Shown piece after piece: positions 11,526 through 54,300 of a stretch of 64,000 bases of DNA. The first letter of the stretch is position 1. Every line of letters begins with the position of its first letter. The stretch covers positions 8,129,051 through 8,193,050 of the forward strand of contig CM119264.1 of assembly GCA_051294375.1 (NCBI GenBank), read 5' to 3'. Position numbers and translations under genes: made by a program. The notes under the pieces are model-generated. The model did not search any database. It worked only from the letters and a program-made list of their open reading frames with translations, and was not told where the DNA came from. The DNA is from Paraspadella gotoi. Its lineage: Eukaryota; Animalia; Chaetognatha.

Positions 11526-11563
<38 letters not shown>

Positions 11564-13880
11564 AAAGGAGAGAGAGAGTGAGAGAACTTGAAAAATAATA
11601 CATTGTGCAATGTACAACAAAGATAAATATTGTTTAAAACTTAATGATTAGTGTTAACAATTAACTACTGTGAATAAATAAGTTAGTGAAGATGAAATTG
11701 TGAAATTTGAAATGTGAAGGAAATAGAGGTGAGGGATAGTTAAGCAATTATTATTATAGTGAAGTATAAGAGTTAAGATAGAGCTCAAAGTGAGCTGGCC
11801 CCCTTGGCTTGTGCAAATAAAGGCCTGATCGATGTGGTCGGGTCATTGACGTGTCAGTGGCTGTGAGGACAAAATCGTTGAGCCTATGTGTGCGGCGTTA
11901 GGGAGGCTTCCTTGCGGGAAGATACCAAGGCTACTCTGATGTCTCTCTGGCCTGGTACGCCTGCCGACTGCCCTCTTCTCGCCTGCTGACGAGGTGGGCG
12001 GCTTTCCGTTCTTGCCGCTTTTGCGACAGGAGTGGTGGACTCTCCTTCCTCCTGCAGCCGTCGCTTTGGGCGGCGCTCACTCCACAGAGAAAGGGAATGA
12101 GTTGCTACAGGTGAAGGAGAGGCATCGTCTGCCCATTGCCTGCGCAAGGGTCTCCGCCTGTCTCGTTGAGTGGAGACGGGGGAAGTCATTGTGCGGACGT
12201 GGTGGAGACGGGGCCTCCACCACGCTTTTTGATAAGCGAATCATAGCTTGGAGGGAGGTCGAATTCGTCCTCCATCACGATTCAAAGAGGGCTCGAGGGC
12301 TTTGATGTATATTGCCTCTCTAATACCTCTTGAGAACCATCGGGTCATGGGACAGCACGAGACAGTCTGTTTCTCTAAATACATGGCCAGGTATTTACCG
12401 TATGCTCGGCTACAGCGGACAATTAATGACCGCGGGCATCACGATAAGGTTTCGTGTGCTGCTGAAATCGATCCGTCAGAGATTTGCCTGTCTCGCCCAC
12501 GTATGCTGCTGTACAGGCTTGGTTGCCCGCCCCTGCACAGGCCGCCCAATAGACGGCTCCTGATGTTTTCGGTCTGGGGATTTTATCTTTCGGTTTCACC
12601 AAAAGCTCACGCAGAGATCTTCACTAACTTATTTATTCACAGGAGTTAATTGTTAACACTAATCATTAAGTTTTAAACAATATTTATCTTTGTTGTACAT
12701 TGCACAATGATATTATTTTTCAAGTTCTCTCACTCTCTCTCTCTCTCTCTCTCTCACCATTTCAATTTCTTTTCACAAACTGGCTCTATTTGTTTCACCT
12801 TAATCTGTCCTCACAATTGACCACTATCCCTTCTCAACTCTGTGTTGGAAACTTTGCCCCTCTCTCTCTCTCTCTCACTCTTTCTATATGCACATAATTT
12901 GTTTCAAATTCACTAACTTTTTTAATGCTGATGAAGGCTTGTAGTTAAGCCGAAACATGTCCGTTTTTATCAAATAAAATCGGCTTGTTTGAAAATTCAT
13001 TTCAAACTTTTCTAATAAAAATAAAATAAAATTATTTTGAAATTTAACGATTTTATAAGGATATTACTACATAAATAATTAAATTTAGTATACTATTCTG
13101 TTAAAAAAAATTTTAAAAGGATTTAAAATTTATTAATTACATATCCATAGACAGTAAAAAAATAATGTTCAATCACTCAATCTTTTCGTCACTCCACCCT
13201 ACTGTACATATATGTATAAACATATATGCAGTCTCTAATTTTAATTTCTTTTTTCTTTTACTTTTTTTATCTCCCTTTCGGGCTATAAAATATTCTAGCG
13301 GCATATATCTACACAGGATGAATTTCCAAAATCTGAGGGAATATTGCATAATTCAAATCGCGGCTTTGTATCAAAATGATAAAAACAAATTGTATCGGAT
13401 CTTTGGCTATCTTGTGCCCAATACGAATTATAATTTGATTTAGAGTTTTCTAGAATGACTTTATTTTTGCTTCTTATTTTACATTCGCCTACCTGAGACA
13501 GCCAGATTTTCGAAGACTTTCGAATCTGACTGGGTTGGATGCTCGTGGCCGAAGTCCCGACGCTGTGTGACTCAGGAAGCGATGGAACCAGGACATGATG
13601 TTCGGCCCGTGTTTTAAGAGTTAACGCTTTTGGAAACTGAAGATCGTGATGTTTACGGGTGTCGACGTCTATCCTCGAGTATGATAACCCGGTCGATAAT
13701 GATGGATGGGGTCGACCGCGAAAACGGTATTGCGATCAGACACCCGCGATTGATTTACGTCGATAAAAGAAATAAAACAAATGGAATTCCGGGCGAGATT
13801 TGCAAAATATTTGTGGTTGTCGATTGAGTAGATTTTTCGGTCTGTCTTTGCAGTCCGGTTGGGACCCGTTGCATGGAAAG

Positions 13881-13925
<45 letters not shown>

Positions 13926-16900
13926 AGCGCAAATGGAAAATGAGATAAAATCTCTCGTTTTCCGCTCAGAGAGAATTTTTTGTTGTCTCGTCTATAGACT
14001 ATAGCGCCCAACATTTCATGCGTTCCGTTTCTGCACAATGAGTTCTCGTCATGAAACTGGGTCAGAGACAAATTTTTCATGAGCATTTCTCTTTTCGATT
14101 GAGTCTGGGATTTCCTATCTATCCGTGTAGAAAATATATTATTATTATTATTATTATTATTATTTTTGTTATTATTATTATAAGGTTATAATTTAATATT
14201 TGGTTCGTGCAACAAGATGATATTTTACGTTTTAATTTGTCAGTAACAAATTTATGAAGCTTTTGTTTATATGTGGAGTTTTTTGTCGTATTTTTTGTAA
14301 AAATTTTAACGGTCTCGTGTTCTTTCCATTATTTTGGACGACTTCGTCGACATTTTCCTGTCCGGAGGAAAGATGAAAAGATTAATGAGGGATTGCCTCC
14401 GGCAGGAAGGGGTGCGTTGACCGGGTGATATGAAACGACGATAAAGGGTCGCAATTTATGCCTGATTGCATCACAAAATTTTGACGCGAAGGAGGGAGAA
14501 GACGTGTTTAAACTGTACCTGTATTTGTATTGTAAAAGTAATTAAATTAGTATTTTTATTAGGTTTTTTGTGCCGGATTTAGGAAAAACCGAATAAAAAT
14601 TTTGATTAACATGTTTTCTTCGTCTTATCGGGAATAATCAAATGCATATTTAGACATGGAATGAGTACTTAATACAATGGTCTTAGCAGACAGTTGGTGA
14701 CATCAGTATTCAGTAGGCCGATGCACCACTGTAACTCTCGCGGTTTCTGAGTAGAAGAAACATAGAACAAGCTTCGGTCGGCAGTAGTATGCGGGAGGCC
14801 AAAAGTCCGGCCAATGTCATGTACAACTGAATAGTAAGACAATCAGGTAACAAGAACCAAAGAGCAACAGGAAATAAAACTGTAAAGTAAAATGAAGCAC
14901 AAACCATAAGTAAGGCACATAATAAAATAAACGTACAAGTAATAAAAACCAAATATAAATGTCTATGAAAAAGTCCATTAGTTCGTGAATCGCAGATGAA
15001 CGGAGGCAGACGATCCTGAAGGAGAGAAGCCATGAACGTAACCGTAACAATTCTCTCTTTTTATTCAGGCACCGCTTTCAATGAAGTGTTCAGAGACTCT
15101 CCCCAATCGTTGGTTCGAATTGTCCAAGTAAGTCGTTCCTCTTATCTCTTGTCTTAACTTAAGAAATAACTCTTTGATTTTTCTTTTAAAGGTGATTATG
15201 GTTCGTCTTCAAAGAGTGACTTTTATGTCCCTACATCATTACCTCGGCTTAACATCGGAGTTGGTCAACGCCAGAGTTGCTCATACGCATGCGCATGCGA
15301 CTTTGAGTTTTAGTGAGTATTTTCATCCAAAAATCAATTTATGACGAGGAGCTAGTAGATGACTGCTATTTTGGTTACCCGTAATGAGCTCGAATCGAAA
15401 TTTGCTTCGCTGTCAATAATCAGGTCAACCAAAGAACTTCAACGCGAGTCCTAAAACTAGTCCCAAACGCGTGAAGAGGTCGGCCTCGCTCCCGCGCAGC
15501 ATGACTTCATCCGACTTCGATGCCGCCGTCAGGTATTCGCGCCGAATGTCGGTCCGTATGCCTGTCCGTCGGCCTGTTTCACTTACGTTAAAATGCATAT
15601 AATTTGCCTATAATTGGTTGCTCTTAAATCTAAGGGACTGCTAGCGCCGCTTTCAGGAAATCCTAAAACTAAAAAGAAATAAAAGACATAATTTTGATGC
15701 AGTGCATGTCATAAACCACCAAAGCCTGTCCAAAGTCAGAGGCAAAATAGCTTATTTATTAAATGAATGGATAATTTTTAAATTGGTTGTACCAATTTCA
15801 TATAAATATACGGGCGAAGAAAATTATTGTAGTCATTTTATGTCTTGTTATGTCAGGACATGTCATGTCACGAGAAATACATGTGATAAGGCAGTCACTG
15901 CGGCGCAACACATTTGATTTACCGTTCTTGTTTTCGACTTGTTGCCCTTTTGATAAACCCATTCCTTATCCTCAGTCGGGCGCGCGTTACGAAAGATGAA
16001 GGCAAACAGTTAAGGGTAAGTTTTCTATTCTCTGCCCGTTTTCGCTTTGCACTTTTCACGCTTGTTATTTTGTCCGATCGAGCGCGCCACTTTTCGCTTC
16101 CTTAGGCCAAGGCCATGAAAAACACTAATGGAGAAGCTTCTGAAATTTCTCAATCCCTATCAACCAGCGCGCCGTCGGCGAATCAGGTTCGGCTTTGGCA
16201 GTTCCTGGTGTTTTCTTTTATGTTGCCGCAATATTATTTTCTTTTCTATTTGTTTTTTTTTTTCGAAATTTATCTAAGACTTTTAAGTTTTAAATATGGA
16301 ATAACACAATAGCACAAGTTCTACACAGTTTCTTTGGAGGCAACTAAGAAACTGAAGAGACAGTAATAATTGTTATGAGTTAGTGTCAGAATCGTCAGAA
16401 TCGTCAGAATCGTCACTGAGCTTCGGATCAGGCTGTAACACTGGACGGTTGGTGGATTTTAGTCCACCATAAAACCTATTTTTTTAAATAGCTATTTGTT
16501 TTTATCGGCAAAATTTTGGTGATAAATCAACGACAGTACGTAAACTTTTTTACCCTTTAGGCAACCGTGACGATGAACAATCTGGAGGATTCAACCGCTG
16601 ATTCTCACCAAGACTTCTCCCAAAACGCCAGCGTCTCCTTCAAGCGTCTTGGAAAAAAGTCGGGCATCGGCGCTAATGACGAACGCAGCAACGCCAGGGG
16701 GCGCCAAACGGATTTTATTGATGGCGGTCACGCCTCTCGTCCTGTGGATCAAAACGCTCAATGGAATGCTGGCTCAAAAAAATCGCCTCCTGGCAATGAA
16801 AACATGGGGCGTCCGCACGCCGGCGGACTAGGAGGATACTCCGTCTCCACAATCGCGATGCACGACGCCACCGACAACGTTATTTTGCAACGCGCCACTA

Positions 16901-19900: not shown

Positions 19901-22900
19901 TCATCGGCGAGTACGGACGTGGAGAAATCGTCGGGCTAGTTGAAGTTCTCATGCAGGTTCTATTCGATGGATGGATCGATTGGATTGTTGGTTAGTTTAT
20001 ATTATTTTATTTTCTATTAATTCATTATCTTTTAAGACTAATCGCACGACGACGGTGATGGCTGTTCGAGACACTGAATTGGCCCAGATTCCCGAAGGAC
20101 TTTTGGATGCTATCAAACAGATGTATCCTCAGGTACCACTATCAATATTGGATAAAAAAAGACAAGGTTGCCGTTTCGTTGCTATTATATTTTTATATAA
20201 TTCACTTTGTCGGTCCGTCGGTCCTAATTAATTAACTTGAATTAATTACCGCTAATGATCGTGGGCAGATCCGACATTTTTTGCTCAAACTTGTTTTCCT
20301 TCTTCCCAGGTGGTTTCTCGTTTGGTTCACCTCCTCGGTACCCGAATCCTAGGCACCCTGAGGGGTCCGTCCCCCACGCACGATCCTTTGACCCATCAAG
20401 GGCATCACCCACACCACGGGCACCACAAGGTCACCAACCTCTCCACCATCGCGACCATTGCCATTCACGAGGACGTGCCCATCCTTAACTTTTCGAGGGA
20501 GCTTGAGAAGCACCTGGCTCTTATTGGTAGGTGAAGGAAACTAGGAAGAGATTGTAAGATTGTCAGCTTGTTCCGTACATCAGCTTCGTAACTGAGGCCG
20601 AGTTTTAGCCCTGGGCGGAACGGTGCTTGCAAAAGATTGACGGGCCGGTTAAACCACCGGAAGGAAGCCTATCATCGGTACCTAACTTCCGGAAGGCAAC
20701 TGACGGAAAAATGACCGTTAGAAAGAAGAGGGGGGTAAAAATCCGAAATATGAACTAACCTCCTTGGATCAGGTAACACGTTGCGTCTCAACTCTTTCCT
20801 TGTGTTCGATCGTCTCGGCAACTCTGCGATGGACTCCGTCAACGAATATCGTCTTCTGAGTTGGTTAGGGATGCAAGAAGATATTCACCGAATGGTCATC
20901 TACGAGGTGATTTTCTTTTCGACCCTTTATGTACTTAATCCTCAAAATCTTTTCCGACTTTTTTTAGTGCGACAGCCGTATGACGCCATGGACGATGCGC
21001 TGCATTCGCCAGGCCGACTGCCTCCTTTTTGTTGGTCTCGGCAGTCACGATCCAAAAAAACTGGGCTCTATGGAGAAAGAACTCGGTAGGGTTTAACTCT
21101 GATTGTAACGCTTTTTGTAATTCCGAATAAAAAATAATAATTATTCTTCCCACCGCCGGGCAGAGGGCATGTCACTCCGTTGCCAGAAGGAATTGGTTCT
21201 TCTCTACCCGAAAGACTCGCGAGGGCCGAGAAAGACTGCCGATTGGCTAAACTCCCGAGGTTACCTCTTCTCCCATCACCACATCCGATGCCCCAACTAC
21301 ATCTTCAAGGAGCGTAGGAGAAATACACAGAACAAAAACGCCGGATGTGAGTAACGCTTTTTATTTCGTTTTTATCTAGACTATTGTGGCGGTATATTCA
21401 CACCGCCTCACATCCACCATCGTTCAGCTAATATCATTGGCTCAGAGGGGCAACGCACCATCCTAAGCGTTGCGTTCCATCCAGTCCTAATGACTTCCCT
21501 CTGCGTTGGCAAAGCGAGACCGTCCCAGGGTAACCGGGCCTGTGACAGGAGGCGTCACTGAGGGTCAGAAGCCCCCAAAGCCAACAGTGAGATGCCCCAT
21601 CCCGATGGGCATCACAGGCAACCCGGCTGTTGCCTTACTATACCATTTATAGTTTTTCAATTTGCTTTAAATGGTATAAAAATAAAAGATACATTTTGCT
21701 AAATTTAATGCTAAGTACGAGAATTAAGCACAGAACGATCATCTTGAACATAATTCACATTTGTTTTCGAATGGCTAAAAAGAGATGAGATTTTTTCGAA
21801 AGTCTGTAAGGCTTGGATTCGTCCTAATTTGACGCTTGCGGCCGTTTAGAACTTTTAGGAGATGCTCGCCAACGCCGTCCGTTTTGTTGGTCAGCATCGA
21901 CACCCTGCTCTCGCTTTCTCGCGCTTCCCGAGATCGATCTCGTCGGCCTCCAAACTGACTTTTTCCCCCGCGAGATAATCCGATCGAGATGGTAGTTCCT
22001 CCTCTAGAATGATGTCCACCAAGTAATCGAAAACGGCTGGATAGTACCAAGGAATAACGTAAAGTCAAAACCTAATTCTTTGGTGAAGTTGTAAAAATAT
22101 CAGCGTTTTTAATTTTTCATAAGAGGTACATATTTATGAATTTTATTTTTAAAATAGCGACCTTTGACGTTGATGTTGTCTTTTGCCGATGCTTCGAAGA
22201 AGGGCAGTTGGATCTCATCGGCAAGGTCTCGTCCGTTGTCGTAGGTGACGACGCGATCTTCGGTAAGATCGCATTTGTTTCCAACGAGGATCGCCTAATA
22301 GTGGAGAGATTATCGAACGCGGTTGAACACCATTACAAAAAGAGCCAAAAACTAATTATAATGTCGTAATTGGCAGACTATATTCCTAAAGACAAATCGA
22401 AAGATTGGGGAAGAAAACTAGGGTATGCACAAATTTCAGAAGTAACCTTAGTGTTTTCGTAGCAAAACGACTTCACTTGAGAGCACCACCCGTTGATGTC
22501 GTTAAAGCTTCTCTCGTTGCTGATATCGTACATGAGGATAAATCCCGAAGTGCCTCGATAATAGGCGGACGTTATTGTGCGGTATCGTTCCTGACCCGCC
22601 GTGTCCCATATCTATGTGGATTAGGTGAACTATTGAAGGTAGCGATCAAATAATATTAGAAGATGCCGGTTTTGTTTCCGTATCTAGTTTTATTTTGAAA
22701 TTTTAGGTTAAAATAAAAAACAATCATTTTGGTATTATACGGGCGTTTTCCACGTGCCTGCAATTTGATCTTACGACCGTCTTTGACGACTGTCTTGATT
22801 CGGAAGTCGATGCCGATAGTGGAGCAGAAGGCGCTGTTGAAGACGTCGTCTGTAAAACGGGTCAGGAAAGCGGTTTTGCCGACGGCCGAGTCGCCGATGA

Positions 22901-23531
22901 TGAGGATCTTGAGCAGGTTATCGTAGAGTCGCCACGGCTCGAGGATGTCCGTTACTGAAACAGCAGGGGAGCTTTTTGAGAAATTCGTGGCTCACCGTCG
23001 TTTTATTTTTAGTCATTAATTAGTAAAGATGTATTAGACTTATCATTTGTTTGCTAAGCGTTTTTATATTTGAATTTTCGGAATTAAATTACAAAACGAA
23101 ATAAAAATATGACGAATCGTTTGTCATATTAGACCTTGAGGATCTTCCGGTTCCATCGCCTTTTCGCAAAACCGGAAATCCTTGCGAACGAGTCCGGGCT
23201 TTTGTCAGGTTTCACCGTTAAGTTCCCTCGTTACGTCACGGCATTGTGATTTTCCCAATTCGTTCACGAATGCGATGAAATACTTCCACAGTGTTAATTT
23301 AATGCCGTTGTTTTTTCGAAACTCGTCTTTTTATCCAATTCCCGTTTTTTCGATACGAACAGATCAATCCTTCTGTTGTTGTTGTATTTTTTATTTAATT
23401 TAGAATTTACCCGAGCTATTTGGGTCGAGTCAGAACGGAAGGAATACGGGCGAGTACTTTGTGCATTCATTTTCAGTCCGAACCGGTTTGTTAGATCTCT
23501 TTATTGTGTCCCCAAACTCAGTAATAATTCG

Positions 23532-25647: not shown

Positions 25648-28600
25648 ATAAAACTTAGTTTTCCTGTATCAAATTATCAAATTGTCATGGGTCGAGATTT
25701 TTGCTATGCGATTGCGACGATCCTTATGCTTTTAAGATTTTTTTTTCTACTTGCAAGTCTCCCTAACTTACTCTTCCTCTCTCACCCTTCACTTCCAGGT
25801 TGGTGGCTTCTCTTTAAGCGGTACTGGCCAGGAACGAAACCCATTCGTGTTCCCGACCTTAATGAGATCCAGTCTCGCCTCGCCTACGTCTCTTGCGTCC
25901 GTCTCCTGGAGACTGTCAAGACAAGGTGGGCTCGGCTCGGGTTGTGGAAAATTCTAAAGTTATTTTCGCTCTTTCTTAAAATTCATTCAATTTTCGTTTT
26001 CTTTTTGTAATGAAGACCTGAATATTTTGTTTTTCAGCGCATGGTGCAACTGGATCCGCCCTCCCATCGACCAGTTCAAGACTCTTCAGTTCTACTCCTT
26101 CGATGAGATTTACAAGTGCGGACTGCAACACGGACACACCAGTAAGATATTTTTGTACCTTTGCGGGCAGAAAGGACAAGATCAAAACAAAAACATTTCC
26201 TCCCAGTTATGGAAGAATGGAAGAAGAACGGGTTTCTGACAAGCATCTACGATGAAAAAACTCCCGAAAAGGATCACAAGCGCACCGATCTCTCTTACTT
26301 CACCAACCCACAGGTATTGAAAAAGCACCCGTTGGATTACTAATACAACCTCGGGTATAAAATACGTAGTATAAAATTAAATAATTTGAATATTGAAACA
26401 AAAGGCCGTCAACGTTCGCTCTGCCGCGACTTTCACCGACTTAGCAGAGCTGGTGTCGACCATCAAGAAGCCCCTCCCGATCTACACTGAGGAGGAGGAA
26501 GACTTTGATGAAGAGGACGACGAGGACGACGAAATCTTCTCCGTCGAAAACACCGTCACCTTCGATACCAGAGTCTCTGGAGAAAATGTCGGTGACGACC
26601 GAGAAGTCACCAGAGGAGCAGTTCGGGAGGAGGATGACGACGACGATGAGGGGGGTGAGATGAAAAGAATTATCACTCGCTATTTTTGTTTCTTCATATA
26701 CTTTTCTAACATAAGTGCGGAGTACAATAAGTATTCCCCGATCTAATACTTAAGGGAGTGGTCTTTTCATACAATTGAAACATTCTTTGAAATATTATAC
26801 CACTTCATTGATAGGGAAGCCAGGCACTCTGGGAGTGAATAAACGAGACTGTGAGAGAGTCTTGATTGAAAGCTTGCAGGGACCTGCTATGTCATTATCT
26901 TGTAAGAGTGATGGAGGCCTTAAACCACCAAAGCCTGTCCAAAGTCAGGGGCAAGATAGCTTATTTATTAAATGAATGGATAATTTTTATATTGGTTGTA
27001 CCAATTTCATAAATATAAATTATAAAATCATCTCATTGCCCCTGCATCAACCTCACTAAGTTTTATTTTCGAGAGTCCGATGTATTTTAATTTGGATACA
27101 TAGTAAAACGGGGGGGAAACTACGTTACGTTAAACATTTTTTGGGACAAACGAGATTTTTTTGCATTTTTAAAAGGGAACTTCACTGTGACAGTGTGACC
27201 TTATGTAAAAACGAATTAATGGCCACCGGCCACTGTATCGATAATTTGACTTTTCCTCAATTTGATAATTATTTCTACCTCTACATACATCCTCAAATTC
27301 CCCTCAATCCCGTACTTTCCCATTTTCAGAATCGATGTCCGATTTCCGCGAGTACCGATCCGTCTCAAATGGCGGTCCTTCCTACAGGCGCCTCTACCGC
27401 CACAAGATGAACTCGAGTCCCGGTGAGTCGCGCAATCGATGGGACCAGCCCAAATCTTCGATGCGTCTCGTGTTGGAGAGCGACAACGGTCGGCTAATGT
27501 CGGTTCCGGTGCGCGCCGACGAGTTGGGTTTGGACGAATTCGGAGCCGACGATGAGTCTGACAATTACGAAGACGAATCGGACGATGAGAAATCCTACAA
27601 CTCGGAAGACGACCGCAGCCCCGAAGAAGATCGCAAAAAGAGGACGTCGACAATGACTGATGCCATAGATTCCGAAACTGCTTCCACTTGCGAGAATCGA
27701 GGATCCCCTATTGTTTCCGACGCGCTTGAAAAAGCGTTGATCGAATCCACGCGTGATGGAAACGATGGCGTCCGAAGTACCGTCGATTCCCTTCCCTCGC
27801 CGCCCGATCGCTCTTCGAAAGTCAACACGGACGGTGCCTCCGTGAAAATTGCCTCGACACCCCCGTCGTTTTACCCTCACTCGGTCGGCGGAGTCTTATC
27901 CGGTGCTTCCGGAGAAAAGACGCCGACGACTCCGTCGATTCTTCGTCGCCGAGACGCCAAGGGCGACCAAGCTAGCGTGACTTCGGCAGCCGCTTGTCCC
28001 GGAGCGCCGGAGCGCACGACCCATCTTTTGGCTCCGGATAAAAAAATGGGAGCGGGTTCTAGGAGGCGAGATTTAACTGGGAAGGCTGAAGCCGGAGGCG
28101 GCTCCGAAAAGTCAGGGAAAAAGGGTGAGAGAGCGCGTTTTACAAAGTCGCTTAAGAAAAGAACGATATCATTGATTTTTGAGACTTGTTGATAGACTTG
28201 TATATAATCATTAGAAGAAACAAAAACAAGACCAACAGCATAATCCTCTCCATTGTACAACTTTCATGTCCACAGATTTTTCGATGATGACATCCGTAGA
28301 AGGTGAAGTCGACACCAACCTCCCTTTTTACGGCAGCGGGCCTATTCCAATTTCCAGCCTGTAAGTCGACCGAATGCCATTTTTACTCCGAAATAATTTA
28401 TTCCGTATCAAAGTGTTTAAAGACGCGACTTAACCTTTAAGGGTCGAAGGAAGTCCTCAGAATTGGAGTCAAAAATGAAGGTTGGTTCAGACAATTAGTG
28501 GACAATTAATTTTATTAAAATGAATACGAACAATTTTTTTCTCATCCTCTCAGGCGTTCTTTCCAAGAAGACGATTTGCTCGAGTGGGATCCTTACACAC

Positions 28601-39360: not shown

Positions 39361-42300
39361 ACTATGATCGAAGTGAACGTTAAAATCGGAAAAATTATAC
39401 TAATGACATATTCGGATAGCTTAACACGAGTAATTCTTGAAAACTTTAGAGGTTATTCCATAAATTTTTAATATTTCAAAAAGGACAAAAATGTTTCATT
39501 TTATTTTTTACGTTTCCTAAAGATGAATCAAACGCTAAGCGGAGTTTTTTTGGCTTTATTTAATTATTTTTACCTCTCAAATACGGTAAAATGAAATTTT
39601 AAAGAGAAAAAAATGATTCAATAAGTTAAACCACTTCAAAATCGCAGTTAAAAATATAATTTACTTAGTAAATGGTTCTTATCGGGGTGTTAGAAAAAAA
39701 ATTAATTTGAAAATCATTTTGGCATTACTCATTTTGCGGATCGTTGCGGATGAAATCCCGAACACATCAAGTGCGTTATAATATCAATCATTATATTTAA
39801 TTAGAATGGTAGTGATTCCCCATGATTCCCTTTATATTTTAAGCTAGTTTTCAAAAACTCAGATACAGTAAAACCTTTTTAGAACAAATTTGTATTTAAT
39901 CCATGCTTGGTATCCAGTTGTTTATCAATATTTAAAAAAAAAGTAAATTCATCATAAAGTTCCTGGAATATAGCTCGACAAAGTGAGTCTGAAATAGAGA
40001 AAAGCCTTATATCCCTAAAGAAATGATTTTTGACAACTGATATTGCTTGAGAGGTTTCTGATGATAGTCCCTAATTAATTAAAAGCATATATATTTTTTG
40101 TACGATGGACTACACTTTTTCTGGAGAAAAAAAAATTATTTCGATGATAGTGGAGAGCGAGAGAAAAGAAAGAAATCAAAAGGCAGCAGCAGAAGCAGCA
40201 GGAAAAAAGAGAGAAAAAGAAGCTGCAGGCTCGTTTTTTTTCCTTATGATTATGAATCAGTGACTAAGGAAAAGAGAGAGGGAGAGAGACATGTAATTAA
40301 AAGAGAAAAGAGAGAGAAAAAGAAATATGAAAATAAAAGAGAGAAAATTTGCTTGTTTTGATAAAACGTAAACAAAACATATTTAATAACTGTCCAGACT
40401 CAATTTTAAGCACATCGATGATGAGAAGCTGTATATAAATTTTCAGCTTCATACACCCAAATTTAATCATAAAAAAGGCGATCTATAATTTGGAACGCCG
40501 ACGAAGACGACGCCACTTATGCGCAAAAGCGTTACAATATCGTCGCAAACGCTTAGCGATTGCGACGATAAAAAAACATATTTTTTTAAAAATTCCAAAT
40601 ATTTTCGGTCAAGTCCGAACCTGTAATTAAAATTTAAAAAAAATATTTTAAATAATATTACTATAAAAAATTTAATTAATGATACTGTTATGCAATTTTT
40701 TTAAAGGCTCAATTAGTTTTTATTACATTTACAAAGACAGCAAAGAAACATTGTTTCATATTTTCATCGCTCCACCCTATTTTACAGTACAGTTATGTCA
40801 TTGATTAATTTTATTATTGTTATTTCTTCATTTTTGTTATTGATTGAATTCGCTGTTTTTGACCAATAACTACCAAGCAATTAGTGCTCCTTAATTTTCC
40901 GTGGGATATTCTTAACCGGTAATGCAAATATTGTAATGCTCTTGCGATGTCTTGACAGACGGAAACTTTGTTATTCAGAGTCAACGGCGAACTATTGAGA
41001 AGGTCGTGAAGACTTCCACGGCCACAGTATTCCGAGACGATATAGTTAGGAAAGGTGTCCGTAATAATTCCATAAAAAGGAACAATATGCTCTTTGACAG
41101 CCCTCTACATTGCAATATAAATTTATTACCTTAAGTAATAGGACTTTTTCTAGGTCGCAGAGATAACTTTTTTTTTCTCTCTCTCTCCTTCTTTTTAAAA
41201 CTTGATAAATTTATATTCTTAAGTTTGTTCTTATATCTTGTTTATGCAATTCACAAAGTCAATGCGAATCGGCCACTGCAATAACTTTAGCCGTATTACA
41301 AATTCATTTTATGTAATTTTATTAAATAACTATAAACAAGTATTATCAAACAATGCCGGATCTGCCCACGATCATTAGTGGTAAGCAGCTGATCAGATAA
41401 TTAATTAATAATATTTTTTTTTATTCGTGTCAAAATCGTTTTCCGTTTTATCTCACATCTCAATCACAAAACAACAATCTCGATCACAAAATTAATTAAT
41501 TAATTACAAATAATGAATAATTAATTAACTACTTATTTATTAATAATTAATTAATACAGCTTGAATTTACATTTAATATAAAAAACCATAATCAAATAGT
41601 GAAATAGATTGTTTGTTTTTTCCATTTTCCATCGAAACTTTATTTTCTGCACAATCACACACTTTTCTACCCACATACAAAATTTTAAATCAATCGCCCC
41701 ATTCACTCATGAATAATTGGTGTTCAAATAGTGAAATATATTTTTTGTTTTTTTCATTTTAACTCATTTCCACTCGGACGATTCCATCAAAACTTGATTT
41801 CCAGCTCAATCACACACATTCCTACCAACACAAAAAATTTCATTCTAATCCATCCATCAAATCACAAGTAATTGGTATTTTTTGCTAAGGTGGGATGGAC
41901 GGACAGACGGACAGATATCATTTTTTTTTAATAATTTATCATAATTCGATGTTCTGACATGATATAAGTGAATGCCCGACAAGATTGGGGGGGCGGACGG
42001 ACGGACCGACAAAGTGAATTATAGAGCCGGAATTTACTATAAGCAGATCTGGCTAAAGATTGGGCCTTTTCAATCATCGATGCCCCCTTGCCGTATGACA
42101 GAGCAGCAAATCTCTCTCGCTCTCTCTCTGGCTGGATGACTTAGTCAGGATCGGGATCGACAAAAACGACTACGATAATTTGAACGATGCATTAATTTTT
42201 TAGGGTTTCGGTTAGGGATAAGGTTAGTTTAGGAGATAGATATTAGGGATTACAGTTGGGATTAGGGTTGGGGATTAGGTTTGAGATTAGGGTTGAGATT

Positions 42301-45300: not shown

Positions 45301-48300
45301 TATAAAACGTTACGTGGTGTTGATTAATTATTATGAGCATTTTTATTTGAATCCAACCAGGTTGATTCGGTACAAAAAACAAAAACAGAAGTCAGATTAA
45401 AGTGTCACTTTTAAGTCTGGAAAAAGCTTTAAAAGGAAGAGAAAGATAAAATTATTAAATAATTGCATTAAAAGAATGGATAATTTTTATATTGGTTGTG
45501 TGGCGAATCCTAATTCATAAAATTCATCTTAATTTCCAAAAATTCAGCTCTTGTATTTTGATGCTGGGCGGAGTACAATATAATATATGGATATATATAT
45601 GGATAATTTTTATATTGGTTGTACCAAATTTCATAAAATTCAGCTCCTTGTATTTTGATGCTAGTGCGGAGTACAATTTTCATACATTTGAAACATTCTT
45701 TGAAATATTTTCCACTTCATTGATAGGGAAGCCAGGTACTCTGGGAGTGAATAAACGGGACTGTGAGAGAGTCTTGATTGAAAGCTTGCAGGGACTTGCT
45801 ATGTAATTATCTTGTAAGAGTGATGGAGGCCTTAAACCACCAAGCCTGTCCAAAGTCAGGGGCAAGATAGTATGGCAACAGCCGGGTTGCCTGTAACGCC
45901 CACCGGGATGGGGCATCTCACTGTTGGCTTTGGGGGCTTCCGACCCTCAGTGACGCCTCCAGTCACTGGCGCGGTTACCCTAGGACGGTCTCGCTTTGCC
46001 AACACAGAGGGAAGTCGTTAGGACTGTGGATGGAACACTACGCTTGGGATGGTGTGTTCCCCCTCTGAGCCAATGGATTTGGCTGGAGGATGACGGACGT
46101 GAGGCGGTGTGAATATACCGCCAACAATTGGCTTTATTATTAAATGAATGAATAATTTTTATATAGGTTGTACCAATTTTATATATAATATAATACTTAA
46201 GTTAGTGGTATTTTCATACAATTGAAACATTCTTTGAAATATTATACAACTTTATTGATAGGAAAGCCAGGTACTCTTGGAGTGAATAAACGAGACTATT
46301 AGTCTTAATCGAAAGCTTGCAGGGACCGGCTATTTCATTATCTTGTAAGAGTGATGGTGGCCTTAAATATCCAAAGTAAGGGGCAATATAGTTTTTATAT
46401 TGGTTGTACCAATTTCATAAAACAACATTAAAAATTGTTTTCATGTCGTAAAAAATTAAATGAAGCCTTGAAGAACGGAATTTTTCAAGGAACAAACCTT
46501 AGAAATATAAAATTCTTTCTACGATTGTTAAACAGACTTGTTAAGTCATAATAACCAAACAAACTACGAAGTTCACGAACACATTCCAATCGATTGTATA
46601 CAAAAACTTTCCGAACACCTCCATTAACAGTATGGTGGACTAAAATCCACCAACCGTTTATCAGCGGCCATTGGTGTAGCAATCAAGTCATTCGCCTCTC
46701 CAACCCAAAGATCCTGGGTTCTAGCCCGGTGGTCGACCTAGCAGTTAAGAGGGACAGGGCGCTTGACCCGCACGGTGTTACAGCCTGATCAGAGGCTCAG
46801 GGACTGCTTATATTGAACGGTTCTGTCACCAACTCTTAACAATTACTGTCTCTTCAACAGCAACATTAAGTATGTCCATATCACGCAACCATAGAGTAAA
46901 ACGGGAACACAGTTTCATCTAATTTCATCTAATCTGACGGTTTAAACGATGTATTAATTAAAAAATTGCAGGACAGAAAAAATGAGAATACTTCTTTGCT
47001 TGAGTCAAACAGACTACTACAATTTCACTACTAAGATTAAATCCAAGGTAGGTCCATTTGTTGACTAACTAAATGCAGTTGCCATTTAGAGCAAGGACAT
47101 TTTTGAGAATTGTACGTTATTTAACATGGTACATGACTTTCGTCTCTCTAAAACTAGAAGTAAAACAATTTTTTTCTGAATATAGAGATATATATATATA
47201 TATAGAATATACAGAACAGATACCTATTAACAATTGCATACCAAACAAAGAAATCACTTAATTCACCTTTCCATCTGCATCTACTCGTAAGGTTGATGTA
47301 CCAATAGCCTAAAAGTCTCGTGAAACAAAAGTTTAACTCCGCGATCTATAAGTTTTTTTAAGAGACCATAGTGGTTAACCTTGTCAAAGCCTTTGCTACA
47401 GTCCATAAAAGTAATAAAACTCCTGAGCCATGATTGTTGAATATTGATGTGGAATTGTGGATAAGGCGCTAATTGGGGCTGAAGAGTGCTATCCGCAACT
47501 TCTAGCAGCCATGGAACGGGTCCTGGGCTTGGAACTAGGCTTGAGGGTTTTCCTCGCCCCTAAAGCGGCTTACGGCCGTCCTCACACTTCCCGCTGGGTA
47601 GGTAGCGGTTTGGGCTTGAACTCATTAACTAGGGGTCATGAGCTGACGGCTTTACTTAATGAGCCACCGGGTCACGACTGAAGGTGTTATCCTTATAGGC
47701 GGGGTGAACCTAGGCAATGCCTGACTACATTGAAATATTCTACACAAGTAGATAATGTAAACATTGCATGCATTATTAGATTAAATCTTACAATTTATTT
47801 TAAATCGATTGATATGAAATTTTTTTAACACTAGTTAGTAGTTAATTAATTTTTATGAGCTTTATACCTGACGAAGATATCGTTGTGTCTCCATCGAGCC
47901 TGAATTTTATAATTGATACGTAAAATGTTACTCGAGAGTCGATAGGAAGCTTGGAAGCAAGTAAAATTTTTTTTAATTGATACGTAATTTCATTGTTACC
48001 AGAAGAGCAGCCGAAATTGAAGAAACTCTGTTGGTTTTCCTTTTTAGCCGGATCTGCTTACAGCAGATTCCGGTTCTATAATTCACTTTGTCGGTCCGCC
48101 CCCCCCAATCTTGTCGGGCATTCACTTATATCATGTCAGAACATCGAATTATAATAAATTATGCAAAAAAAATTATGTCCGTCTGTCTGTCTGTCCATCC
48201 CACCTTAGCAAAAAACACCAATTACTCGTGATTTGATGGATGGATTGGAATGAAATTTGTGTGTGGGTAGGAAAGTGTGTGATTGAGCTGGAAATTAAGT

Positions 48301-51300
48301 TTCGCTGGAATCGTCCGAGTGGAAATGAGTTAAAATGGAAAAAAACAAAAAATATATTTCACTATTTGAACGCCAATTACTCATGAGTGAATGGGGCGAT
48401 TGATTTTAAATTTGTATGTGGGTAGAAAAGTGTGTGATTGAGCAGGAAATAAAGTTTCGATGGAATCGTCCAAGTGGAATTGAGTTAAAATGGAAAAAAC
48501 AAAAACAATCTATTTCACTTTTTGATTATGCTTTTTCTTATTTTTATATTAAATGTAAACTCAAGCTGCAATAATTAATTATTAATAATAAGTAATTAAT
48601 TAATTATTTGTTGTTTTGTGATTGAAAGATGAGACAAAGTGGAAAACGATTATGACACAAATTTAAAAAAATTAATATTAATTAATTAATTAAATAATTA
48701 ATTGATTAAATAATTATCAGATCAACTTCTTACCGCTAATGATCGTGGGCAGATCCGGCATTCTTTGCTCAAACTTGTTACTTTACATTTATAACTTCTT
48801 ATGGAAAAAAACTTACTTATTTTTGTTTAATTTGATTTCGGAATTGGTCTTTGAAAAAACGTTCTTGGATGGAATGACCCAGGCCGAACGGCACAGGAAA
48901 ATCCTTTTTCTAAAGCTGACTATAATTCCCGCCAAGACCAAAATGCAGCACATGAGAAATGGGACGCCCCAAATCCACCACGGGCAGTTTTGGTCGTTAA
49001 TACCACAGGCCGGCTCGTCAGGAGGATACGCACTCTGGTAGGGGTTTTTTTCTTTCCACAGCGAAAACAAGATGTGGGAATGCGCTTTCTTTACCGAGAC
49101 GTCGACGCTGCCAAAAGGGGGGGGGGAGAGCTTTCAAAACCAACTTGTTTGTTTTGTAATTTTCTTTTTCTTACTACTCGGTTTTGAGTGGAGTGAAAGA
49201 GTATTCTCTAACATATTCAAAATATTTTTTCTTTTTATCGTAACTCATGAGAAGCATGTCGTAAAGGAAATTTCCATTCATAGTGACAATTTGCTTCTTT
49301 CCAGGGCAACCTATATAGAATAAGTTATAAATCGTCATTAAATACAAAAAAAAAAAAAAAAAAAATTCGATTGAAACATGTACGGAAAAATTGAAACCTT
49401 TAAAAGGAGAACGAGCAATTTTAATTTACCAATCATTAAATCTTAAAAGAAATCAGGTATTTCTTTGATGTGACCATTTAAAATTTAAAAAAAGCATTTT
49501 ATATTAGTTTTTGAGATTAATAAATTTCCTGACTCGTGTGTACTATAAACATATTCACACTGAGTACATTAAAGTACAAACCTAAAAATAATTTCTGGCT
49601 TATCCCTTGGCTCTGCTGGAAGAAAGGAATGTTGAACCAGTAACCGTCTGAGGCGTTTCGGTCTCCTGTAAATAAACAAGTTTTAAATTCTTTTGATGTT
49701 CATGATCATCTCTAATTATTATAATAGGAAGATATTTTCGATGTAGTGGCACGAATTAGACAAGTTTTTGTCATTTCTCAATGATGGTTCTATTATTTTG
49801 AGAAAATTAATTTAAACAAAGAAAGCAAAACATTGAAAAGACAGTAATTATTGTTATGAGTTAATGACAGAACCGTTCAATATAAGCAGTCCCTGAGCTT
49901 CGGATCAGGCTGTAACATCGTGTTACAGGCGGGTTACGCGTCCCGTCCCTCTTAACTGGTAGGCGACCAGCGGGCTAGAACCCGGGACCATTGGGTTGGG
50001 AGGCGCATGACTTGTCTCCGGGACCAATGGTGGATTTTAGTCCTCCATAACATGCGCTTTTTTTTTTAAATCTTTGCCTAAATTTGACATTTAATTTTCA
50101 ATAGGAGCTTGTTGATTTCCATTATATTTGAACGATAGTGAAATATAACGAAACTAAAGAAGGAAAAACATCAACTTTTATCCTCACGAACCTTTTTTAA
50201 ATTCGCCTTTGATTGACATATTATAATTCTTCCAAAAGTGGGCCATTGCTTTGAAAAAACGCTCCTGTAATAAAGGACGATTCGAGAAAAAAAAATAATA
50301 AAAAAATAAAAAAGGAATAACTACCAAAATTGCCTAGCTAAATACTCGCCTGTAACCTCCCAAACAAGGACCATGTTTTGAGCTCTTTCATGCTATGACA
50401 AAACTGTCTCGGATCGACGGTGATATGCATGAAGCTGCCGTAGGCGTCTCCGCCTTCCTCGCTCGGCTTAGATTTGATGAGACGGCTGATCCAGGGGTAG
50501 CGAAGGTTCATGAAGTCTCGTTGCGCGCTCAGATCGATGAAGACGTATTCTCCGCGGACCATGAAACCCAATTCGGAGGCGGTCTTGACGACCTTTCGAG
50601 TCCAATCCGATGGTCCGCATATAAAGACGATCGACCGCTTGGCGCCGACGATGTTGGTCATCAGAATTTTGTTTATTTTTCCCTCTTTGACGATACCGAG
50701 TGTCAGGTCCACTTTATTTAGAAACTTTTTTTGAAAAAAGCGGAAAGGGCCTCTCTCCTATCTCTCTCTCTCATCATCCATCCTCGTCTCTTCCTCTCTC
50801 TCTCATCTTTCTTCACCTTCGACGGCTAAATCTTAGTTTTATTTCTAAATTGTGGCGAAGCCTCACCAGATTTTATTAAACGAAATACATCGTGACATAT
50901 GGCAACCATAGAGATTTTAGTTCGCGGATTCATTTCCTGTCAAGTAAAATATTATCAAGATATTAAGATAAAATAAGATGTTATCGATAATTTCAGACCG
51001 AGAAAAATTGAATCTTGTTGGGATAAGTCAACCGCATTCTGGTTCGTTATCAAAGCAAGTTTATATTAACATCATTTGTCTCTGCAATTTATAATAAAAC
51101 AAGTTGGAGCAAACAATGTCGGATCTGCCCACGATCATTATCGGTAATTAAATAATTAATAATTCATTAATTCAAATTAATTAATTAGTCAATTAATTAA
51201 TTAACTTGATCCGAAATGTTTGTTTTGATAGATTAATTGACTGATTAATTAATAATTGATTAATTAACTTCTTAATTATTTGATTAATTTATACATCTTG

Positions 51301-54300
51301 CATTTACAAAGAAAAAGAAGCATAATCAATTAGTGAAACAGGTTTTTTGTTTTTTTCCATTTAAACTCAACATATATAATCTTAAATAGGGAGAAAGAGT
51401 TTTGAGAAATAGTTGACAGCCTTGCAAAGGAAAACCATACTAACAAATAAAAGTTTAAATTAATAAATTTTAAAATTAACCGGTTAATCTTACCAAATTA
51501 ACCGATCGGTTAAAATTATTTTTAATCGGCGGTTAACCGTTAATCGGTTAAAACGCCTAGTCGAAACATGTTTGATTTTTCCTTTAATTAAAAATCTTTG
51601 TTTTAACCACAAAAACTTTTGTCTCTCTTAAATTCACACAAACAACAAAAGAAAGGTGATGGTGTCAGCATAAACACGCCAGTGACATGGGGTGTTCACT
51701 GCAGGTCCAAAGCCCTGATGCCTCACACCCCAGGCATCACACATGTCCCCCCGTTGCCATAAACCCCTCAAAAACAAGCAATGAACGCCTATTTAGTTAA
51801 CTGAGTGTAAAACATGATGTATCATGACATAAGAAAGCGGGTTTCAATCCCCCCGTCTACCTACAGCAGCTGGTACGATGTAAGCGGCTTTCTTCCATCC
51901 AAAGTCCTTCATGATCGACACAGCGATCTTCGCTCTTAGGATCGTTTGCGCCATGAGGGAGAAACAAGACGCACAACCTTTTAACAAAAATCCATTCATC
52001 AATTTACCCTCTCCTCAATTTATAAAAGATATCTTCTTCAATTTTTTAATTTTCTACACCTCCATACTTTGTAATTGTAGTTACTTTAATTAGGAAACAT
52101 ACAAATGTGCGATGATAGATTTGAGGACGATGACCAACCAACCGACCAACCAACCAAACAACCATCTGCCTCGAAACATGTTTCATTAATGAACTTCCAA
52201 GGAGATCCATGGGTACCGACCTCAAAATAATTTTAATAGCTCAGTAACTAATTTGAATACAATTTTAATTAACGTGGCAAAACTATCCCAAGTCATGAAA
52301 TTGATTTTGACTACCCTCATCCTATTGCGTTTGCCCAATGTAGCAAGACAAATTTCAGGTCGCTTTTTTTAATTTTTCTGATTTTCGAATTTTTTGAGGT
52401 TCTGTTTTTCGTCGTATCTGCTTACAGTAGACTGCCATATCTTTTTAACCGAGTTTAGCACTATTGTGCCTCGACAACGTACTAATTTTTTTTTGCATAA
52501 TTTTCTATAATTCGATCTTCTGAGATGATATAAGTGACTTACCGACAAGATAATGGGTTGCGACCGACAGACCGACAAAGTGAATAATAGAGCCGGAATT
52601 TTCTGATAAGAATATCCGGCTAAAAACCCTCTCAGCGATCTTGCAGACACGCTCTTCACCACCCAGAGCTCCCACGCGGTTTTGTCTTACCACATGCTTT
52701 CTACCCTTTCTTCATAAATCTTTAAAGGTAATAGAGCCAACGTGCTCCACACATCCAGTTAAATATTCATGTTGTAGCTATGTATCTAGCCACAAACTAC
52801 TACCCGTGGATCTCCTCGTACAATTCGTCGAAGGTAAATATCAAAGTTCGGTATTAAGAAAAATTTAATATTTAACTTTTTAATAAACGCACTCATTCAT
52901 ACCACATAAATAATTAACCAATTTTGAAAGACGCTCTTAACCTCTCGCCCCATGAGCTTGACAGTTGACTCTCTTCCCGCTCACCGTAAGGCTCAGTCTT
53001 CTTCGGAAAGCCCAACCTTCGGTAAAAGTAGTCACTCGTCGAAAGTTCTAAGGCTTTGATCCGATCGAGATAGTCGAGGTAAAACACTTGAGCGCTGATT
53101 AGACGAAAACGTTGGCGCCAAATTTCAAAATTTCATTTTCACATTAAAAAAAAAATCTTATTGCAAGCATGTAAGCATGTATCAATTGTATCATTGCATG
53201 GTCATGTCTGACCGTGACGTTTTAAACCCGCAACTGAAGAAGTGTGGCGTGAGGTCAGATAATTGAACCACCAAACAGTGGCACTATATTCCGAAGCAGT
53301 AACTAAACTTAATTATTTTAAAAATACTTAATCCAATCGTTAAACCTTACCTAATAAGGCGGAACAGAAATTGACGCTAATAGAATGATAGCCAGTTCTA
53401 TTCAAATAATTTTGGTTGCAAATAGTTTAATGCTTCGATAGGAAGCAATAAATTTTTATAAAATTCAACATCTGTGACGCAAAGCACTACATTTTTATTA
53501 ATCATTTTTACTTCCGTAAATTTCTCTGATTCTCGTCTCCTCCCGCCCCGTGATTGGCCAGATAGGTCACGTACTTTGCGCTTCCTATAGAAATTAAGCA
53601 CATAGCGGAAAGGTGGTTCTCACAAAATTTAGAATTAATTCAAGTTTTTTATTAATATTTTTTTTATCTCATAAAAACTTGAACAATAACTTAGATAGCA
53701 AAATAATGAGTTAAGTCGACGAAGACAGGGACGTGAAGGACGCAGTGAACAGTAAGAATAGCTACATAAACATGATACCGAAGGCTAACACTGGGCTGAA
53801 TAATATGATCTACAAGGCAAGAAACCATGGAAGAATGAGGAAATTAACGAGGAAGAAAAACTAGATAAGAAGAAAAATTACAAACAAAATGGAATTTTCG
53901 TCACAAAACAAAAAATTAAACGTTTAAACGTTTCCAAGCAAGCCCCGCGAATCTGACTCTTGTGGTTCAGCCAGGTTGGGAAAGATGATTCCCTCGATTC
54001 CATTGCGTGGCGCGCAAAATAATTGTTTCTTTGCATTATGGCCAGCAATTTTAAACCACAAACATCCGTCAAATCCGAATCATTCGCTCGACCAGATTGG
54101 GTGTGAGACGGAAAATGCGGAATATTTCAATTTGTTCAGAATCAATCCTGCAGATCGGAGATTGTGAGGTCGCAGGTGAGGACTGGTTCGTAAATTGGTT
54201 ATCGAATCCCAATCAATTAGTTCGGCAATAGTTTCCGCCTTGAGGTGAGAGGGGGAGGAACAAACTTTCTGACCCGATTTATCCCCGGAATCATTCCCTT

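Follow-up and report, generated by a model that had tools for sequence, protein, structure and literature searches.

Twister ribozymes are marked by a U^AA cleavage strand, a P4 loop of the form U-NNN-AA-NN that makes two pseudoknots, and GA-NNN preceding P1, and minimal hammerheads that cleave as dimers were reportedly described by Lunse in 2017. Metazoan non-LTR retrozymes are 170-400-nt non-coding units with one ribozyme each, which occur dispersed and in tandem at very high copy, have a GC content under 45-50%, a type I hammerhead per unit and a highly self-paired monomer, and yield abundant monomer RNA in linear and circular form (PMC7229834; bioRxiv 10.64898/2026.07.22.740005), and hammerhead retrozymes are stated to derive from Penelope pLTRs (bioRxiv 2026.07.22.740005). 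Hammerheads of amphibian retrozymes that have one pair under a palindromic tetraloop depend on dimers, monomer cleavage being poor (PMC7229834, PMC7761336). Most Naiad/Chlamys elements of the Penelope-like group were reported to lack a canonical hammerhead (Craig et al. 2021, PMC8557442); the word twister does not occur in the text or supplement of that study, which leaves undecided whether Penelope ribozymes are functional or parasitic on the elements. T-variant twisters of S. mansoni lie on the LINE Perere-3 (PMC8501958), and the main text of that paper contains neither 'dimer' nor 'circular'. Here we compare with these systems a repeat found in a window of 64 kb, the whole stretch of DNA analysed.

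An intronic repeat with a twister fold

The repeat unit is ~325 bp long, non-coding, has a GC content of 0.38 and is present in very high copy. Its copies and surroundings in the window are:

26655..27329, + strand: host intron of the NTE/PNPLA6-7 gene, from GT at 26655 to AG at 27329
26714..27013, + strand: copy A, without the first ~25 bp of the unit
26991..27013, + strand: 3'-terminal hairpin (26991-96/27000-05) and fixed 3' end (27010-27013)
15713..15802, + strand: copy B, a 3' fragment in another NTE intron, with its 5' boundary at the predicted cut site +/-1 nt
45467..46422, + strand: tandem cluster of partial, internally deleted units
45638..45663, + strand: 5' piece of the unit, 25-26 bp, at head-to-tail junctions
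45819-45860, + strand: second ribozyme core of the tandem cluster
45871-46130: unrelated ~260-bp repeat inside the tandem cluster

The first-pass annotation had proposed a retrozyme-like repeat of ~300 bp ending at 27015. Its retrozyme-like character is supported, as are the dispersed (15712-15810, 26714-27013) and tandem (45467-46422) copies, while the length and end had to be revised to ~325 bp and 27010-27013. Copy A is close to the family majority (one majority difference in 300 bp, at 26825) and, as proposed, lies in sense orientation within an NTE intron: the gene is on the + strand, the intron runs from GT to AG, and one contig of X9, a putative RNA run whose contigs give no level, ends or circles, joins the exons flanking 26655..27329. 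X9 also holds contigs of the repeat, and the best named matches of the NTE gene are from a chiton, a nemertean and a bryozoan.

At least 645 contigs of run X1 leave the repeat at 27010-27013 (four ends listed), where it reads TTTCATAAA; its 5' ends are variable and contig depth climbs toward the 3' end. Hairpins are subterminal at both ends, and there is no clear target-site duplication beyond a microhomology of 4-5 nt. Head-to-tail junctions, for instance from 27013 to 26714, are common in the contigs, and summed depth is 1.0-1.2 million for the junction piece versus 2.8-4.8 million for the core; such depth (millions on the repeat, 232-286 on the flanks) does not measure copy number. Pieces of the repeat in organisms B, C and D and in a biofilm metagenome were discarded as relatives, being mostly near-identical and of low depth.

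The ribozyme candidate occupies 63 nt of copy A and is composed as follows:

26896..26958, + strand: predicted type-P5 twister-like ribozyme, closed by an 8-bp P5 (26896-26903/26951-26958) with U.G as top pair
26904..26911, + strand: AAG junction, 5' strand of P2 (26907-09) and GA, from the core pair check and contig variants
26912..26914, + strand: pseudoknot T1 strand UGG, partner CCA at 26939-26941
26915..26920, + strand: self-complementary hexamer AGGCCU, all that is left of P1; predicted to form an intermolecular P1
26921..26923, + strand: U^AA, predicted cut 26921/26922, with ~91 nt of the repeat downstream
26924..26933, + strand: 3-nt P2 strand ACC, T2 strand AC (26927-28) and C-AAA-G remnant of P3
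26934..26949, + strand: P4 CCUG/CAGG with loop U-CCA-AA-GU

The sequence agrees to the letter with the first description. P4 and the terminal P5 are both formed, the conserved GA, N^AA and L4 U..AA are all present, and the substituted pairs (CCA/UGG in T1 and GU/AC in T2, AC 26927-28 with GU 26944-45) make all five pseudoknot pairs Watson-Crick. G26910 would be the general base, judging from solved twisters. The cleavage strand contributes 3 nt to P2, which has two to three pairs, short of 4 bp; A26907 varies between A and U (10%) in the contigs, so that it is mismatched or bulged, and G26906-C26926 offers an alternative third pair. An intramolecular P1 hairpin would have a loop length of 0.

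In an E-value search of 26600-27200 with Rfam, Twister-P5 (RF02684) scored 25.8 bits (E 0.003), below its gathering cut-off of 37.6; in the alignment the P1 loop is 0 nt long and one P2 position is deleted. No Rfam model matched anywhere in the 64-kb window at gathering level, and no hammerhead was found in 26600-27200 at E up to 10. A degenerate architecture pattern matched once in the window versus 0 of 100 shuffles, and a structure-aware scan matched four times versus a mean of 0.017 in 60 shuffles. The match at 26896-26958 is not due to chance. The twister core is missing from the minimum-energy fold (z -0.18), which is to be expected of a double pseudoknot. The repeat shares with type-P5 twisters (RF02684, clan CL00120; PMC5408937) the P5-ended permutation, T1, T2 and P4, together with GA-NGG, U^AA and L4 U-CCN-AA-GN, and is unlike them in its loopless 6-nt palindrome as P1, its 3-nt P2 cleavage strand, its score, and T1 UGG/CCA and T2 AC/GU in the predicted fold.

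Across genomic contigs, variants are scarcer in the core than in its flanks. Variants of at least 3% occur at 3 of 63 core positions versus 28 of 184 flank positions (p=0.02), and variable G/C sites number 1 of 29 versus 18 of 63 (p=0.004), both from contig tables whose depths are non-independent counts. The three core variants keep pairing or sit in unpaired or mismatched positions; G26951A (15%), for example, turns the top U.G of P5 into U-A and leaves P5 intact. Over its first 50 bp and last 34 bp the repeat varies as little as in the core, and flank variants keep ten predicted pairs and break nine.

Relatives in the window, in Penelope-like elements and in a metagenome

Two further repeat families of the window carry a twister:

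49893..49950, - strand: twister of the second family; T1 CGG/CCG, T2 GC/GC, P3 hairpin, 3-nt P2, AAG junction
51655..51716, + strand: twister of the third family; T1 UGG/CCA, T2 GC/GC, P3 hairpin; 5' strand of P5 absent

One window holds covarying versions of the fold in three repeat families, and the pseudoknots at 26896-26958 covary with the second family, the Rfam consensus and the metagenomic locus described below. The second family is a relative of the ~325-bp repeat, not the same repeat. Its hexamer is not clear-cut as a palindrome, with GACGCG in one copy and GGCGCU in a decayed one, and its head looks tRNA-like by eye; ARAGORN found no tRNA in it. The P1 region of the third family, UGUCAGCA, is not palindromic.

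We also found the fold, by eye, in the last ~300 nt of the consensuses Naiad_Mgal, Bpla, Mphi, Scon and Mmer (Craig 2021) and, after a motif search, in the same 3' part of Chlamys-1_pPol, that is in 5 of ~50 Naiad 3' ends viewed and in one Chlamys consensus. Motif strings did not retrieve the bivalve Naiads, whose T1 differs, and about a tenth of matches in the consensuses are hidden from such a search by line breaks. Read by eye, all five bivalve Naiads have a 3-nt P2, an AAG-NNN-GA junction and, directly before the cut nucleotide, differing self-complementary 8-9-mers with a 0-1-nt centre; Naiad_Mgal and Bpla match the repeat in P4 CCUG/CAGG and T2 AC/GU. Unlike the repeat, which is minimal and without an ORF, they have a full P3 and two palindromes. 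P1 of Chlamys-1_pPol is ordinary, short and with a long loop, whereas Chlamys-1_cAtm matched a motif string but lacks the fold. The proposed analogy to Penelope hammerheads turns out stronger than claimed, because Penelope-like elements carry the twister fold itself in their 3' tails. With its fixed 3' end, 5' truncation and head-to-tail copies the repeat looks like a non-autonomous Naiad/Chlamys derivative; 5' truncation, partial tandems and non-autonomous derivatives in head-to-tail order are on record for these elements (PMC8557442). No RT lies within the 64-kb window, and we found no twister retrozyme of Naiad/Chlamys type in print.

An architecture-only scan of metagenomes, with a pattern that fixed 18 bases and spacing, gave three matches, one of them real (L007); L008 and L009 failed the structure scan and had no Rfam twister. 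L007 has the same 3-nt P2, scores 27.3 bits with the Rfam P5 model and shows no DNA similarity to the repeat outside the fold. Between the two, pairing is kept in 29 of 30 cells, and 6 of the 15 pairs are changed on both sides, including one pair per pseudoknot and two of the three hexamer pairs, so that the hexamer, CAGCUG versus AGGCCU, differs at four of six positions and is still a perfect palindrome. It is the single independent hexamer example found computationally. L007 sits ~290 nt behind an ORF ending in YMDD and thumb, which found 192 homologues matching at their C-termini in a full HMMER search; among 23 longer homologues scanned, 8 have an N-terminal GIY-YIG and 11 an RT. Neither Pfam nor a word-based protein search matched the ORF, and in the ESM Atlas an HTH_animal lead (10% of members) was all that came up. 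L007 lies behind the RT of a Penelope-like element with N-terminal endonuclease.

The exact 24-nt pattern was absent from metagenomes, and the element-specific and 3-nt-P2 patterns from viral contigs. Three viral contigs retrieved with canonical patterns (two of them tandem) are all type-P1 twisters, not P5, and all nine matches in prokaryote genomes failed the structure scan and had no Rfam twister. The short P2 and P1 hexamer, noted at first as atypical, are traits of the family: P2 is equally short in L007, in the second family and in five Naiads, a feature common to relatives, not decay, and L007 has a hexamer palindrome too.

Proposed dimer pairing and rival explanations

We favour, with modest confidence, the reading that Naiad/Chlamys-type elements gave rise to the repeat and mobilise it, as a non-autonomous twister retrozyme whose cleavage, predicted at 26921/26922, would proceed mainly in a strand-swapped dimer. 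In a tandem transcript, AGGCCU of two neighbouring units would form one 6-bp P1, and each ribozyme would pair its 5' half (P5-P2-GA-T1) with the 3' half of its neighbour. No cis partner would be available to a circle formed by re-ligation or to an isolated copy in an intron, and both would be largely spared. In A/T-rich targets, the RT of the element would prime at the fixed 3' end of the repeat, and rounds on circular or uncut template could give 5'-truncated, full and tandem insertions. The hexamer duplex is calculated at -9.1 versus +5.6 kcal/mol for a 1-bp hairpin, and the strand-swapped dimer at -30.5 versus 2 x -8.7 kcal/mol, counting nested helices only. As in the minimal dimer hammerheads of Penelope pLTRs and amphibians (PMC6765202, PMC7761336, PMC7229834), the helix adjacent to the cut is a palindrome, the ribozyme lies in a 3' repeat and the tandem layout provides the partner; unlike them, it belongs to an unrelated ribozyme class, so that the likeness would be convergence, and hammerheads rely on stem III more than twisters do on P1. 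Among the loose ends listed (20, with 833 more, and 16, with 506 more) the cut site is absent, and only copy B starts there, a single hint of cleavage.

The same active twister might, however, cleave as a monomer, the hexamer being a 6-nt linker (one A-U pair and a tetraloop) left over from a P1 that lost its loop, which we consider rather unlikely. Six nucleotides suffice to span the gap, and P1 is dispensable in an engineered mini-twister, P1-less versions cleaving at almost wild-type rate (PMC5408937), which weakens the dimer case; P1-less cleavage is called inefficient elsewhere (PMC8501958), and an altered number of P2 pairs is suggested to disrupt the active site (PMC5408937). The single copies of families 2 and 3 in the window speak against a dimer rule, as the third family and one copy of the second lack a clean palindrome. 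Set against this, five bivalve Naiads retain different self-complementary 8-9-mers, copy A stays in sense within a normally spliced intron, and the palindrome of L007 is perfect despite its changes, even at the second pair, whose formation in a single strand would leave a loop of 2 nt; this different palindrome, with pairs impossible in one strand, lends the dimer model comparative support. A P1 stem that loses its loop becomes a palindrome automatically.

Two other readings replace the Naiad/Chlamys origin, and we regard both as improbable. A SINE-like repeat could be moved by a conventional LINE such as RTE and have its transcripts trimmed by the twister, on the model of Schistosoma Perere-3: a fixed 3' end with 5' truncation suits any target-primed reverse transcription, twisters are announced for RTE elements (PMC7761336), the tRNA-like head of family 2, negative in ARAGORN, would fit, and the Perere-3 twisters likewise have a weak P1 on an animal retroelement. 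Those twisters, however, are of type P1, at the 5' end of the LINE and with P1 completed by the target site (PMC8501958), whereas ours is of type P5 and close to the 3' end (~91 nt); its 3-nt P2 and AAG junction recur in Naiad tails, and head-to-tail junctions are common in the repeat that carries it. A non-autonomous rolling-circle DNA element (Helitron/Helentron), or a satellite, could also have captured a twister, now an inactive remnant; each end has a subterminal hairpin, copies occur in tandem and with internal deletions, microhomology stands in place of a clear target-site duplication and the Rfam score is subthreshold, all of which would agree with it. Helitrons typically end in a 3' hairpin followed by CTRR, or in subterminal inverted repeats. 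The 3' end of the repeat has the hairpin but no CTRR, the core is better conserved than the flanks, and three families of the window carry the covarying fold.

Consequences for retrozymes and Penelope-like elements

A dispersed and tandem non-coding unit of 170-400 bp with low GC, carrying one ribozyme, very abundant and with a likely Penelope pLTR origin, places the repeat beside the metazoan non-LTR retrozymes (PMC7229834; bioRxiv 10.64898/2026.07.22.740005). It differs in having a twister in place of a type I hammerhead and only modest self-pairing (linear monomer z -2.0; circular z -1.3, with 18 of 150 shuffles as good), and is known here as DNA and contigs. In its widest form, which we put forward only tentatively, it may be a natural twister acting as an obligate strand-swapped dimer, convergent with dimeric Penelope hammerheads, the missing ribozyme of part of the Naiad/Chlamys clade and the first twister retrozyme, with 325-nt circles unable to re-cut.

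The 3-nt P2 and missing P1 loop explain why standard models miss such RNAs. Retrozymes would extend beyond hammerheads, and a 63-nt natural candidate for a dimer-gated twister may serve RNA circularisation or logic devices. For Penelope-like elements, another, unrelated class of ribozyme in the same place and with the same palindrome device would argue for a function of regulated self-cleavage.

The twister-like fold and a covarying counterpart

The bases at 26896–26958 read as the first-pass annotation gave them, and all base pairs of the type-P5 twister-like fold proposed there form. Rfam returned zero matches at the gathering level for the whole window; in E-value mode Twister-P5 aligned to 26907–26949 with 25.8 bits (E 0.003; cut-off 37.6), and in this alignment the window core has no P1 loop and lacks one position of P2. 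A degenerate pattern of the architecture has a single match in the window and none in 100 shuffles. The strict structure-aware scan, for which T1 and T2 must be Watson-Crick, P4 must have 4 bp and P2 two pairs, gave four matches in the window, where 60 shuffles gave 0.017 on average; a looser one (eight versus 2.5) was not informative. The fold recurs in two more repeat families, at 49893–49950 (minus strand) and 51655–51716.

Copies of twister-bearing repeat families in the window
26714–27013: repeat copy
15712–15810: repeat copy
45467–46422: tandem repeat cluster, partly deleted
49833–50070 (−), 46630–46857 (+), 16353–16489 (−): second family, ~230 bp
51655–51716 (+): third twister, T1 UGG/CCA, T2 GC/GC, P3 hairpin, without the P5 5' strand; single in the window

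The second family has a tRNA-like head by eye (ARAGORN found none), followed by a P5 twister with the T1 variant CGG/CCG and a full P3, and is possibly a SINE with a twister.

A pattern in which 18 bases and their spacing were fixed and the helix partners left free gave three matches in JGI metagenomes. Two of them (L008, L009) fail the structure scan and were rejected as twisters. The third, L007, passes all helices, P5 among them, and scores 27.3 bits with Twister-P5. It differs from the window core at 16 of 43 ungapped columns, and 12 of these differences form compensatory pairs (T1 one, T2 one, P4 two, hexamer two); the remainder are one wobble change, two in the third P2 pair (C-G in L007, A·C in the window) and one loop base. 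Pairs in T1, T2, P4 and the hexamer change on both sides. The L007 hexamer, CAGCUG, is a perfect palindrome like AGGCCU in the window. The case for covariation rests on the pairs left free by the metagenome pattern, the shuffle control carrying little weight for a pair of sequences that also supplied the structure. In viral contigs (L002/L005, L003/L006) two type-P1 twisters lie back to back, 48 nt apart, linked by G-AACGUU-AA, a palindrome including the cut-site U.

The repeat unit and its host gene

The description of the repeat as both dispersed and tandem was borne out, and across the unit there is no start-codon ORF of note. In X1, a DNA sequencing run, 28,956 contigs matched 26300–27500, with a summed depth of 0.9–8.9 million within the repeat versus 232–286 on most flank bins, which shows a very abundant repeat family and is not a copy number. 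Depth declines towards the 5' end, and at least 645 contigs exit the repeat at 27010–27013 into unlike A/T-rich sequence. Contigs also join 27013 to 26714 with 25 letters in between, which defines a unit of ~325 bp and corrects the earlier size of ~300 bp. The 25-letter piece is present at 45638–45663; because its summed depth is 1.0–1.2 million versus 2.8–4.8 million for the core, head-to-tail junctions are common. The copy at 15712–15810 starts within one base of the predicted cut site (26921/26922), and the minority of loose-end rows listed in the contig tables show no pile-up there. As a rod, the unit folds with only a small advantage over shuffled sequence (z −2.0 for the linear form, −1.3 for the circular one). 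An unrelated ~260-bp repeat is inserted right behind P5 in the tandem cluster (45871–46130), with further copies at 21383–21641 and 57575–57788.

Variants of at least 3% in X1 occur at 3 of 63 ribozyme positions, compared with 28 of 184 flanking positions (p=0.02), and at 1 of 29 versus 18 of 63 G/C sites (p=0.004), counts weakened by the non-independence of the contigs. The core variants are A26907U at a mismatched or bulged P2 position, A26931U in a loop and G26951A, which turns a P5 U·G pair into U-A; conclusions from the junction-unit table cover the variants listed in it. Both ends of the repeat, 50 bp on the 5' side and 34 bp on the 3' side, are as invariant as the core, which tells against this contrast.

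The host gene is NTE/PNPLA6-7 (plus strand, about 7.4 to 28 kb). As annotated, the copy at 26714–27013 lies in sense in one of its introns, and one spliced contig of another run, X9, joins the flanking exons.

Host intron
26655–27329 (+): intron of NTE/PNPLA6-7

A Rab-family GTPase gene (22076–22991, minus strand) is nested antisense within an intron of the same gene. Long inverted repeat pairs (43540–45074, 41335–48779, 11272–13018, 42604–43466) probably represent DNA transposon or MITE families.

Probable relation to Penelope-like elements

In L007 a frame with YMDD and a thumb reaches its stop ~290 nt ahead of the twister, and both have the same orientation.

Features of L007
150–192 and 482–1090 (−): RT palm and thumb, then minimal P5 twister; 3'-terminal part of a Penelope element of Chlamys-like type

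Its N-terminus is off the contig, so the clade is inferred. HMMER found 192 relatives, aligned at their C-termini; among 23 longer ones scanned, GIY-YIG was matched at the N-terminus in eight and RT in 11, no nuclease was matched at the C-terminus in any, and the alignment contains DKN and CxC-like motifs. This layout is the permuted arrangement of Naiad/Chlamys elements. In several of the long homologues a PCIF1_WW-like domain precedes the RT.

According to the available text of Craig et al. 2021 (PMC8557442), Naiad/Chlamys clades lack canonical hammerheads save for two Chlamys subclades, and 'twister' occurs zero times in its main text and supplement as available. A motif search of its consensus files, judged by eye, placed the twister fold near the 3' end of Chlamys-1_pPol, within its final ~140 nt. 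By eye and unscored, the fold also appears in five bivalve consensuses among ~50 Naiad tails viewed (last 200–350 nt). All five have AAG-NNN-GA, a 3-nt P2, P3, P4 and P5, a self-complementary stretch immediately preceding the cut nucleotide (AACC-A-GGUU, AAUC-U-GAUU, AACC-U-GGUU, AACC-A-GGUU, AACCGGUU) and a second palindrome. In the available part of File S5 of the same paper, a different conserved motif, which begins GCGGGTG, is common to several Naiad tails from oysters, hemichordates and others, and two nematode tails show hammerhead cores; Naiads may have several kinds of unannotated ribozyme on board.

No RT was found in the window, so that the partner element in this genome is putative; what the repeat shares with elements of other species is the RNA fold. 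Mobilisation of the family by Naiad/Chlamys-type elements is likely.

Possible dimeric cleavage and standing of the family

Within one strand AGGCCU forms one pair only (+5.6 kcal/mol); across two strands it forms six (−9.1 kcal/mol). The nested helices of a strand-swapped dimer sum to −30.5, versus −17.4 for those of two monomers. Each core of this dimer would combine the 3' half of a unit with the 5' half of the following one, as an ordinary twister set on a P1 of 6 bp. Cleavage of tandem transcripts would yield monomers, and neither circles nor single intronic copies would have a partner in cis. Such dimeric behaviour is described for hammerheads from Penelope pLTRs and from amphibian retrozymes in the accessible parts of PMC6765202, PMC7761336 and PMC7229834. 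The main objection is that, according to the available text of PMC5408937, twisters without P1 cleave at nearly the wild-type rate and the length of P2 has been proposed to be critical. The available text of PMC8501958 describes cleavage without P1 as inefficient. In family 3 and in one copy of family 2 there is no clean palindrome. On balance, we slightly favour cleavage that is dimer-dependent or strongly dimer-stimulated. That the family masters encode an active twister is very probable, and a circular intermediate has about even chances.

In the mostly open-access literature searched, neither twisters of Naiad/Chlamys elements nor a retrozyme based on a twister nor a natural twister acting as a dimer was reported, and 'Naiad' and 'twister' occurred together in zero papers. 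Such repeats may figure in the original lists of twisters (Roth et al. 2014). The word 'twister' is absent from the available part of a 2026 preprint that traces retrozymes to pLTRs, and the available part of PMC7761336 announces work on RTE twisters. The additions here are the minimal form with a single palindrome, a covarying counterpart of it downstream of a Chlamys-like RT, and the ORF-less tandem repeat carrying it. The repeat is a real feature that is predicted to work like a P5 twister and a non-LTR retrozyme, yet it lacks defining features of both as catalogued.
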